From the sequence record ON871820: DNA of 64,000 nt; one strand, 5' to 3'. The translations under genes and the position numbers were made by a program. The notes below the pieces were generated by a model, which saw nothing but the letters and a program-made list of their open reading frames with translations, made no database searches and had not been told where the DNA came from. Shown piece after piece: positions 42,355 through 44,566 of the stretch; position 1 is the stretch's first letter, and each line of letters opens with the position of its first letter. The DNA comes from Escherichia phage vB_Eco-B1.1.

Positions 42355-43095
42355 ATGATTAGTGACTCTATGACAGTTGAAGAAATCCGTCTTCATTTGG
42401 GGCTTGCATTAAAAGAAAAAGATTTCGTAGTTGATAAAACTGGTGTTAAAACTATTGAAATTATTGGCGCATCATTTGTAGCAGATGAACCGTTTATTTT
42501 TGGCGCTCTTAATGATGAATACATTCAGCGTGAACTTGAATGGTATAAATCTAAGAGTTTGTTTGTTAAAGATATTCCAGGTGAAACACCAAAGATTTGG
42601 CAGCAGGTAGCATCTTCTAAAGGCGAAATTAACTCGAATTATGGTTGGGCTATTTGGTCAGAAGATAACTATGCCCAGTATGATATGTGTTTAGCTGAAC
42701 TTGGTCAAAATCCTGATTCTCGGCGTGGTATCATGATTTATACTCGTCCATCCATGCAATTTGACTACAATAAAGATGGTATGTCAGATTTCATGTGTAC
42801 TAATACAGTACAGTACCTGATTCGTGATAAGAAAGTCAATGCGGTTGTTAGCATGAGAAGCAATGATTGCTGGGCAGGCTATCGTAATGATTATGCTTGG
42901 CAAAAATACGTACTAGATAAATTAGTATCTGATTTGAATGCAGGCGACCCATCGCGGCAATATAAAGCAGGTTCTATTATATGGAACGTTGGAAGTCTTC
43001 ATGTGTACGAAAATCAGTTTTATTTAGTTGACCATTGGTGGAACACCGGTGAGACTCATATTGCTAAAAAGGATTATACTGGAAAATGGAAGTAA
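42355..43095 (+). CDS. 42: dCMP hydroxymethylase gp42
   Basis: 246 aa; thymidylate-synthase-like fold. Confidence 0.9.
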   Translation: MISDSMTVEEIRLHLGLALKEKDFVVDKTGVKTIEIIGASFVADEPFIFGALNDEYIQRELEWYKSKSLFVKDIPGETPKIWQQVASSKGEINSNYGWAIWSEDNYAQYDMCLAELGQNPDSRRGIMIYTRPSMQFDYNKDGMSDFMCTNTVQYLIRDKKVNAVVSMRSNDCWAGYRNDYAWQKYVLDKLVSDLNAGDPSRQYKAGSIIWNVGSLHVYENQFYLVDHWWNTGETHIAKKDYTGKWK

Positions 43096-43727
43096 ATGTG
43101 CCGCATGTTTATAAGTATAAACATCCTAAAACTAAAAAGTGGTATATAGGAAGTCATGATGGTCACAACCCGAATTATGATGGTTCGGGTGTAGTTTGGC
43201 AACATGTTAAAAAGAAATATGGAATAAAATCCTTTAATAAAGAAATATTATATGAAGGACCAATGTTTAGACAGGTTGAAGAAATTATTTTAACTTGTTT
43301 AGATGCTGCTAATTGTCCGGATTCATATAATTTAAAGAATGAAGCATGGGGAGGAAGTTTTCCAGGCAAATTAAATGGAATGTACGGTAAAAAACTATCT
43401 CCAGAAGAAAGATATAAGTGCGGAAATGCCTTTCGTGGAATCAAGCGTCCTGATCATTCTAAAAGAATGAAAGGCGAAGGTAATCCAATGTATGGTAAAA
43501 ATGAGCAGGCATATGGAATTATAAATCGAGCCAAGGAAAATTCTGGTAAAACTTATGAAGAAATTTTTGGCGTAGAAAAAGCTAAAATAATTAAAGAAAC
43601 GATGTCTAAAAATCGTAAAGGAAAACCTCATAATTTGATAGAAAAAATATGTCCGCATTGCGGACTAAAAGGACGTGGGCCAAATATGACAAGATACCAT
43701 TTTGATAAATGTAAGGCACTTAAATGA
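43086..43727 (+). CDS. free-standing GIY-YIG homing endonuclease (seg-like)
   Basis: VYKYKHPKTKKWYIGSHDG; NUMOD-like basic repeats. Confidence 0.75.
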   Translation: MEVNVPHVYKYKHPKTKKWYIGSHDGHNPNYDGSGVVWQHVKKKYGIKSFNKEILYEGPMFRQVEEIILTCLDAANCPDSYNLKNEAWGGSFPGKLNGMYGKKLSPEERYKCGNAFRGIKRPDHSKRMKGEGNPMYGKNEQAYGIINRAKENSGKTYEEIFGVEKAKIIKETMSKNRKGKPHNLIEKICPHCGLKGRGPNMTRYHFDKCKALK

Positions 43728-44566
43728 TTCAATTCGTAATTCCAAGTTATCAGCGTGTCGGGGCAGTTTCTGCCCTTGATATGTTTCCGACTGATTATGA
43801 ACCGCATATTGTAGTGCGTGAACATGAAGAAAAAGCTTATTATGATGCCTATGGGTCTAAAGCTAAAATTATAACTATTCCTGATGATGTAAACGGAATT
43901 GCCGGTACTCGTAAAGCAATTACTGATATGTATGCAGGTCAACGAATCTGGATGATTGACGATGATACTACTATTCGTATGAGTTCAATGCGAAAGAGAG
44001 ATGATCGGCGCTGCGTAGATAAAGTCAATCAATTGACTCGTGAACAGTTCTATGAATTGATTCAATACGTTGAAGATGCCATGGATTGCGGGTATTATCA
44101 TGGTCATGCTCGTCTACCTATTTTTAAAATTACTTCATCTTGGGGTAATTATCGTGAAAATTCATATGGATTCACGAATACATGGTATGACCTCGGAAAA
44201 CTTACGACAGAACAAATTGGGTATGGAAAAATTGATTTATGCGAAGATATGTATGCATTTCTCAATTTAATTAATCAAGGTTATCCGCATTTGGCCTTGT
44301 TCAAATATCTGGTTGTATCTGGAAAAGCACAAGCTCCTGGCGGATGTAGTTCAATTCGTAGTAATTCTAAACATAATAGAGCGCTTGAACAAATCAATAG
44401 AGAGTTTCCAGAGCAAGCTCGTTGGAAAACTTCTAATATTGAAAAACGAAAATCGTTGGGTGAAGAAGATGAACCACTAAAGGTTCTTCGCATGTGTGTT
44501 TCGCGCAAAGAAAAATCAGAAGCATTTCATAAGTTTAATGCTATTCATCCAATAGCAGTTGATTAA
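43724..44566 (+). CDS. glycosyltransferase (DxD, GT-A-like) in the beta-gt slot
   Basis: 280 aa with MIDDD motif; does not resemble the T4 beta-gt sequence as I recall it. Confidence 0.6.
   Translation: MIQFVIPSYQRVGAVSALDMFPTDYEPHIVVREHEEKAYYDAYGSKAKIITIPDDVNGIAGTRKAITDMYAGQRIWMIDDDTTIRMSSMRKRDDRRCVDKVNQLTREQFYELIQYVEDAMDCGYYHGHARLPIFKITSSWGNYRENSYGFTNTWYDLGKLTTEQIGYGKIDLCEDMYAFLNLINQGYPHLALFKYLVVSGKAQAPGGCSSIRSNSKHNRALEQINREFPEQARWKTSNIEKRKSLGEEDEPLKVLRMCVSRKEKSEAFHKFNAIHPIAVD

Follow-up and report, generated by a model that had tools for sequence, protein, structure and literature searches.

The DNA analysed here, a window of 64,000 nucleotides from Escherichia phage vB_Eco-B1.1 (ON871820), is a T4-like (Tequatrovirus) genome segment in which two open reading frames (ORFs) of 213 and 280 amino acids (aa) lie between gene 42 and uvsX. 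A preliminary description of this DNA had pointed out both, and we confirmed them on the + strand at the coordinates it gave. We refer to the first as HE, for homing endonuclease, and to the second, a transferase, as TAGT; genomes that carry or lack the 213-aa endonuclease gene are called HE-positive and HE-negative, respectively. Positions are those of the window unless another record is named, and the features on which the argument turns are the following.

42355..43095, + strand: gene 42, dCMP hydroxymethylase, 246 aa (Pfam Thymidylat_synt, 1.3e-14)
42853..42891, + strand: gene 42 codons 167-179 (MRSND-CWAGY-RND), the most conserved stretch of the protein
42856-42882, + strand: patch 1, the HE-linked allele, the variable part of codons 167-179
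43008-43017, + strand: patch 2 (YENQFY vs YSRHFY)
42856..43086, + strand: HE-linked haplotype tract, the 3' 240 bp of gene 42, holding 35/35 fixed differences between HE-positive and HE-negative genomes
43086..43727, + strand: HE, free-standing Seg-like GIY-YIG homing endonuclease, 213 aa (PHROG 314 at 8e-30; profile match to I-TevI)
43104-43343, + strand: HE catalytic domain, about residues 7-86
43458-43499, + strand: HE NUMOD3-like motif, residues 125-138
43650-43712, + strand: HE C-terminal CPHC...NMTRYHFDKC motif, putative zinc-ribbon
43724..44566, + strand: TAGT (ba-gt, g-gt), beta-glucosyl-HMC-alpha-glucosyltransferase, 280 aa (PHROG 842, Pfam PF20691)
44644..45825, + strand: uvsX, the conserved right flank of the transferase slot, 100% aa identity to T2 uvsX

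The start of HE overlaps the end of gene 42 by 10 nt, and the start of TAGT overlaps the HE stop codon (ATGA). The gene 42 product (gp42) shows 94-95% aa identity to those of T2 and T4, with Cys148 and Asp179 present. Dozens of sequenced phages of Escherichia, Shigella, Salmonella and Yersinia have this 3.5-kb stretch at 98% identity or more, so the arrangement is real and recurrent, and not an artefact.

The presence of HE is variable among close relatives. Gene 42 runs directly into the transferase gene in T2 and T6, where the two overlap by ATGA, and HE in the window is a clean 632-bp insertion at this overlap. At 95% identity or more, we found HE in 77 records, compared with about 471 for TAGT. 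In the records REP2 (OQ174501.1), BCH953P2 (OZ035785.1) and Roth67 (PQ657814.1), the HE matches come in two pieces, which points to frameshifted copies. We also noticed short HE matches (24-35 aa, N- or C-terminal only) located 65-92 nt 3' of gene 42 in the IMG/VR contigs L102, L135, L145 and L150/L267, which may be remnants of degraded copies, as predicted by the gain-decay-loss cycle of homing endonucleases.

That the first ORF encodes a GIY-YIG endonuclease, as the preliminary description had it, was borne out at profile level only. PHROG 314 ('homing endonuclease') matches HE directly. When the single HE sequence was compared with Pfam, we obtained no GIY-YIG match and only a sub-threshold NUMOD3 hit (18 bits); the NCBIfam model TIGR01453 ('group I intron endonuclease') was likewise below threshold (21 bits vs a cut-off of 56), and a phmmer search of the PDB with the same single sequence gave no match. 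A profile made from a shallow alignment of 15 sequences (HE, its orthologues, some distant homologues, T4 SegA and SegC) matched the I-TevI catalytic domain over its whole length (1LN0 and 1MK0, E=1e-8 and 1e-7). The motifs of the family are found in HE as VY (8-9), 10 residues, YIG (20-22), the catalytic E65 and YN (81-82). In this alignment Y9, Y20, G22, G46, Y81 and N82 are invariant, SegA and SegC included, E65 is near-invariant, and the Seg-type Y-x-GSG and KYG motifs are present. The experimentally active T4 enzymes SegA and SegC also have Y-x-GSG at the position of I-TevI Arg27. At the other end of the protein, the CPHC...NMTRYHFDKC motif recurs in many phage endonucleases and could be a zinc-ribbon DNA-binding module. 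In four IMG/VR contigs (L221-L223 and L225), the N-terminal nuclease and the linker are kept and the CPHC...NMTRYHFD C-terminus is replaced by a helix-turn-helix (HTH)-like module (…ILIDGIEYGCIVDAMRILGLSRHK…).

HE is under purifying selection, with 17 synonymous vs 4 nonsynonymous polymorphic codons among 8 Tequatrovirus copies and a dN/dS of 0.07 between the copies of the Klebsiella phages Mexia and KP185. Simple scans upstream of HE for T4 late (TATAAATA), middle (MotA box) and sigma-70 promoters gave nothing specific; the gene is translationally coupled to its neighbours. HE is an intact, selectively constrained and free-standing protein that adds an uncharacterised enzyme to the Seg endonucleases, and we hold its assignment as a mobile Seg-type GIY-YIG endonuclease to be very probable. 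One GenBank record labels it 'SegD', a name that we reject, the best T4 matches being SegC and SegA, both weak.

The insertion is accompanied by a recoding of gene 42. The gene is near-identical to that of T2 apart from a few dense patches, the first of which is patch 1. It reads ATG AGA AGC AAT GAT TGC TGG GCA GGC TAT (MRSND-CWAGY) in HE-positive genomes and ATG CGC TCA AAT GAC GTG GTC TTC GGA TTC (MRSND-VVFGF) in HE-negative phages (T2, T4, T6 and other relatives). The Arg codon differs as CGC to AGA and the Ser codon as TCA to AGC, fully synonymous changes that were scored as altering all bases of the codon, and these swaps point to the DNA sequence, and not the protein, as the object of selection. 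When we aligned 7 HE-positive with 6 HE-negative Tequatroviruses, every one of the 35 fixed differences fell within 42856-43086, an interval sharply bounded by patch 1 and by HE, and 17 of them lie in the patch 1 region, the densest cluster. No fixed difference was found upstream (42000-42855) among about 95 polymorphic sites in 850 bp, nor among about 165 polymorphic sites in TAGT and uvsX (43724-45195). The patch-1 allele was present in 25 of the 25 HE-positive Tequatroviruses that could be checked; counted over all records, it occurs in 89 and the T2-type allele in 388. The same boundaries are seen in Klebsiella phages. Mexia (HE-positive) and Mineola (HE-negative) are identical up to the patch-1 codon, divergent from there through HE, and near-identical again from the first base of the TAGT gene. 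Linkage to HE extends to patch 2 and to the C-terminal gene 42 codons, which the HE-positive phages of Escherichia and Klebsiella have in common.

Patch 1 sits in a part of the protein where change is rare. Among 34 gp42 sequences that were not selected on the motif (loci selected by pattern had biased a first scan and were excluded), the 13-residue stretch starting at residue 167 is the window of lowest entropy, and patch 1 is placed within it between Asp171 and Arg177-Asn178-Asp179. By alignment with thymidylate synthase, we take the stretch from Asp171 to Asp179 to be the pyrimidine-binding loop of T4 gp42. The Shigella phage SP21535 (PQ615101.1, 2009-3588) separates the two elements of the haplotype. 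It keeps patch 1, is T2-type from about 42945 on, has no HE, and its gene 42 abuts the transferase gene. This natural recombinant is what an 'immune' or resistant empty site would look like, and about 11 of the 89 patch-1 records may resemble it.

The HE family is tied to the 3' end of gene 42, and not to the transferase. The orthologues of at least 55% identity span several genera and metagenomes (55-69% identity), and HE lies directly 3' of gene 42 in all 18 IMG/VR loci as well as in the Klebsiella phages Mexia and KP185 and the Yersinia phage MHG19. The gp42 of these 18 contigs is only 49-63% identical to that of the window. The next gene is TAGT in Mexia and KP185, a T4-type beta-gt in MHG19, and a gene for an alpha-gt-like protein of the GT-B type in contig L225 (3191-4435, following the HE orthologue at 2483-3178). 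In the same scan, 36 homologues had less than 50% identity and not one of them adjoins gene 42, so that it is the partnership with gene 42 which defines the family. Our literature searches found no description of this gene-42-associated endonuclease.

The neighbouring 280-aa ORF almost certainly encodes the T2/T6-type GT-A glucosyltransferase TAGT, by its sequence matches. It matches PHROG 842 ('beta-glucosyl-HMC-alpha-glucosyltransferase') at 5.6e-89 and Pfam PF20691 (TAGT) with 38.9 bits, above the gathering cut-off of 27.5, its residues 3-207 aligning with positions 2-205 of a model that is 205 positions long. Compared with the enzyme of T2 it has 3 substitutions (277/280 residues identical, 98.9%), and compared with that of T6 it has 4; its DxD motif, MIDDD, occupies residues 77-81 (43952-43966). 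The preliminary description had held that this protein does not resemble T4 beta-glucosyltransferase and may be of the T2/T6 type; both proved sound. BLASTP against T4 beta-gt gave no detectable similarity and no meaningful alignment (E=2.1). A sequence search of the PDB with the transferase matched no solved structure; the protein of T6, as modelled with AlphaFold3, is reported to have a GT-A fold (PMC13216743). The T2/T6 enzyme puts a second, beta-linked glucose on alpha-glucosyl-hydroxymethylcytosine (hmC), giving gentiobiosyl-hmC, which makes up about 5% of the hmC in T2 and about 72% in T6 (10.64898/2026.02.25.707755; PMC13216743). The partner that makes the substrate is encoded elsewhere in the window.

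29054..30256, + strand: alpha-glucosyltransferase, 400 aa (91% identity to T4 alpha-gt, across all 400 aa)

By homology, TAGT would use UDP-glucose to add a beta-1,6-linked second glucose to the alpha-glucosyl-hmC produced by this alpha-gt, the product being gentiobiosyl-hmC. As the window holds both alpha-gt and TAGT, its DNA modification is predicted to consist of alpha-glucosyl and gentiobiosyl hmC, i.e. to be of the T2/T6 type and not of the T4 type, in line with the different glycosylation pattern that had been proposed. The sense that the transferase itself is unusual did not survive. By tblastn, about 471 phage records have the gene with an identity of 95% or above, and about 200 Klebsiella and Enterobacter phages have it with 64-66%; a first IMG/VR scan with the transferase as query gave 5 loci only. 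Most such phages have one glucosyltransferase (GT) and a TAGT, the alpha plus beta pair of T4 being the rare state (PMC13216743). TAGT in the slot between gene 42 and uvsX is therefore a common, already known and ordinary Tequatrovirus arrangement.

Two details of this gene deserve mention. In the T6 record MH550421.1 (22137-22976 region), codon 10 of the transferase ORF is TAG, where the window and T2 have CAG. This record annotates a shorter ggt coding sequence with a downstream start, which is odd given that T6 has the highest gentiobiosyl content; the TAG may have arisen by mutation in the strain or by an error of sequencing, or it may mean that the downstream start is used. A terminator-like GC-rich hairpin (GGGGCAG TTT CTGCCCT) followed by a T-rich run lies at 43760-43776, inside the 5' end of TAGT, and its stem is kept in Klebsiella phages with another loop (GGGGCAGTAACTGCCCT).

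How would HE spread? The free-standing endonucleases of T4 cut conserved genes hundreds of bp away from their own gene, and SegF, SegG and SegB carry out intronless homing (PMC2988022). The tract of fixed differences resembles the footprint that would be expected of such a process. The reading that we favour, and consider likely as a whole, is that the slot holds TAGT together with a gene-42-associated HE that cuts VVF-type gene 42, the CWAGY allele being resistant. In a mixed infection, HE would cut the gene 42 of HE-less phages (VVFGF-type, in the active-site loop) within or close to codons 168-176, which lie some 210-240 bp upstream of the HE insertion point, and repair off the HE-positive genome by recombination would copy the tract from the cut through the HE gene. 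The resident gene 42 would resist cleavage through its recoded allele, that is CWAGY together with the synonymous Arg and Ser swaps. An HE and a sensitive site in one genome would lead to self-cutting, and this would be why patch 1, at the far end of the tract, stays perfectly linked to HE while the flanks have been shuffled. The downstream transferase would be co-converted only in recipients without homology there, such co-conversion being limited because the proposed cut is on the gene 42 side. We infer the target from the footprint of the tract and from the viable, presumably resistant and HE-less SP21535; a target in or close to codons 168-176 of VVF-type gene 42 appears somewhat more probable than not.

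Several observations weigh against this reading. The Pfam GIY-YIG model does not match the single HE sequence, and the canonical GIY-YIG arginine (I-TevI R27) is not aligned but falls in an insertion or gap, the family having Y-x-GSG. The gentiobiosyl-hmC fraction (5% in T2, 72% in T6) is not predictable from sequence. Only two clades, Tequatrovirus and Jiaodavirus, contrast HE-positive with HE-negative genomes, and the informative comparison is confined to them; a third independent contrast was sought around the Yersinia phage MHG19, which has no close relatives in the collection. Moreover, the W-A allele (x-W-[A/S]-G-[Y/F]) occurs without any HE in about 60 of 80 environmental T4-like loci, and close environmental pairs with and without HE (L123/L174 vs L127) share it, so it may be the ancestral state of the donor lineage, carried along with HE. 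Finally, L225 has an intact HE orthologue, with the HTH-type C-terminus, beside an 'AIFGL' gp42 that is neither W-A nor VVF. As a general marker of HE the W-A patch was accordingly rejected, a degenerate-pattern scan having found it commonly in environmental gp42 without HE, and for the same reason the association of patch and HE is informative only where VVF alleles coexist with it. The environmental W-A alleles and L225 do not contradict cleavage of VVF-type gene 42, but they keep simple hitch-hiking alive. Under this alternative, a W-A-type donor supplied HE together with the final 240 bp of gene 42, CWAGY came along as a passenger that has no role in resistance, and the true cut lies at the junction of gene 42 and the transferase gene, in patch 2 or outside the region. 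Besides the environmental alleles, the shared pairs and L225, it can call on patch 2 and the C-terminal codons, which are as much a part of the HE-linked haplotype in both Escherichia and Klebsiella phages. We nevertheless judge it unlikely. In Tequatrovirus, recombination has erased all fixed differences just upstream of patch 1 and throughout the sequence downstream of HE, yet patch 1, the farthest from HE, stays the densest; no HE-positive genome with a T2-type patch 1 was seen among the 25 checked; and protein function does not account for synonymous codon swaps that involve several nucleotides. A target at the junction could not be conserved across the family, since the downstream gene varies (TAGT, beta-gt or alpha-gt-like). 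More doubtful still is that HE is no longer mobile, and is kept for some other role (interference with co-infecting phages, DNA processing) or is decaying. The frameshifted copies, the short HE-like fragments 3' of gene 42 in some metagenomic contigs and the lack of an own promoter in simple scans, with translational coupling to the neighbours, would fit such a fate. The ORF of HE is intact, however, with its catalytic residues conserved under strong purifying selection, and patchy presence and absence combined with a linked tract is the classic footprint of homing.

A further proposal, made in the preliminary description, was that the endonuclease could have driven allele replacement, which here would mean that in this lineage the T2/T6-type transferase took the place of a T4-type beta-gt. 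The same general suggestion is found in the literature, where the presence or absence of putative endonuclease genes in the region from gene 43 to gene 40 was given a possible role in moving modification genes (PMC8056088), and the slot 3' of gene 42 does hold different transferases in different lineages. It is also mechanistically conceivable. T4 has both beta-gt and segA between gene 42 and uvsX, which corrects the earlier picture of beta-gt alone; after a cut in a T4-type gene 42 the next homology past HE would be uvsX, and repair could bring TAGT in and take beta-gt and segA out. We found no linkage between HE and a transferase allele, HE being tied to gene 42. TAGT is present in about 390 Tequatrovirus-type records without HE, shows no fixed difference between HE-positive and HE-negative genomes, and is one of three kinds of downstream transferase found with HE orthologues, which are thus not tied to one allele. 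Furthermore, TAGT with a single GT is reported to be what most of these phages have, and the T4 pair to be the derived rarity (PMC13216743). We therefore give this proposal little credence for the lineage studied here. The right side of the slot also differs between the two haplotypes. In the window a spacer of only 77 bp (44567-44643), without segA, separates TAGT from uvsX, and T4 segA is found at 2057-2734 of the T4T locus (L089). SegA targets uvsX (PMC2988022). T4 UvsX is 90.5% identical to that of the window, compared with 100% for T2 and 99.7-100% for T2 and the IMG/VR relatives, and T4 gp43 is 99.4% identical to the window's; the divergence of T4 UvsX may be a tract linked to SegA. A bolder version of the cleavage of gene 42 by HE is worth stating, tentatively and as speculation, namely that HE founds a Seg family specific to gene 42 and has as its recognition site the DNA of the dCMP hydroxymethylase active-site loop, with CWAGY as a selected immunity allele, and that rival endonucleases bracket the slot. 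If this were true, the hmC-glycosylation slot would be bracketed in alternative haplotypes, with HE cutting gene 42 to the left of TAGT and SegA cutting uvsX to the right of beta-gt. Mixed infections would then swap whole DNA-modification cassettes, and the anti-restriction sugar pattern would be an exchangeable module driven by homing.

These findings are of modest novelty: the transferase was known before, and the endonuclease joins the Seg endonucleases as one more member. Knowing which transferase is present helps only with annotation and the choice of phages, in that DNA of the T2/T6 type and not of the T4 type is to be expected. Brig1 attacks alpha-glucosyl-hmC, a second glucose blunts the attack, and T6 deleted for the enzyme is more sensitive to this glycosylase (PMC11078745). 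The predicted sugar pattern thus affects the sensitivity to Brig1 (PMC11078745), to glycosylase/BapA (10.64898/2026.02.25.707755) and to GmrSD-type enzymes (PMC13216743). HE is a small, testable addition to the biology of homing endonucleases, in that it represents an uncharacterised Seg family whose genomic partner is specific and conserved. For this family a target of about 30 bp can be predicted, and there are a candidate natural resistant allele and a candidate recombinant that is 'resistant but empty'. HE also bears on the movement of DNA-modification genes between T-even phages, because the repair of any cut in gene 42 has to extend over the adjoining transferase slot.

The surroundings of the locus are those of a T4-like phage.

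38684-41380, + strand: gene 43
between gene 43 and gene 42: imm region
3' of uvsX, + strand: genes 40 and 41

A strong hairpin, AGGGACCTCCGGGTCCCT, lies at 41393-41410, directly after the gene 43 stop codon. A 189-aa ORF with a TTG start (41373-41942) overlaps gene 43 at its end and takes in the reading frame of imm.1; the SP21535 record annotates the long form of the imm.1 ORF, and other records a 381-bp imm.1.

Compared with known systems, TAGT is the T2/T6 gene in the T2/T6 slot, from gene 42 to uvsX, with the same length of 280 aa, the same DxD motif and the same alpha-gt partner. The difference is that HE separates it from gene 42 in the window, whereas the two genes overlap in T2 and T6. 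Whether the gentiobiosyl level is T2-like (about 5%) or T6-like (about 72%) is not readable from the sequence. With T4 beta-gt (GT-B, PDB 1JG7), TAGT shares the genomic slot after gene 42 and the glucosylation of hmC DNA, but there is no sequence similarity (E=2.1), the folds differ (GT-B vs GT-A; PMC13216743), and beta-gt acts on bare hmC whereas TAGT acts on alpha-glucosyl-hmC.

The endonuclease is closest to T4 SegA-SegG, whose catalytic domain it shares, with the Y-x-GSG, KYG, catalytic Glu and YN motifs; the identity is 42% to SegA over 71 aa and 35% to SegC over 132 aa. Like the T4 Seg genes, it lies between conserved genes and is polymorphic for presence and absence, and its linked tract in a neighbouring conserved gene, a few hundred bp off, is as in other free-standing endonucleases (PMC2988022). 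It is, however, orthologous to none of them. Its insertion site is the junction of gene 42 and the transferase gene, its presumed target is gene 42, and its CPHC...NMTRYHFDKC module is absent from SegA and SegC. I-TevI, encoded in the td intron of T4, has a catalytic domain homologous to that of HE at profile level (E=1e-8), the same modular build of N-terminal nuclease, NUMOD3-type linker and C-terminal DNA-binding module, and is also associated with a gene of the thymidylate synthase family. HE is free-standing and not intron-encoded, its Seg-type motif replaces that of Arg27, and its presumed cut would lie about 200 bp from the insertion point, compared with 23-25 bp for I-TevI.

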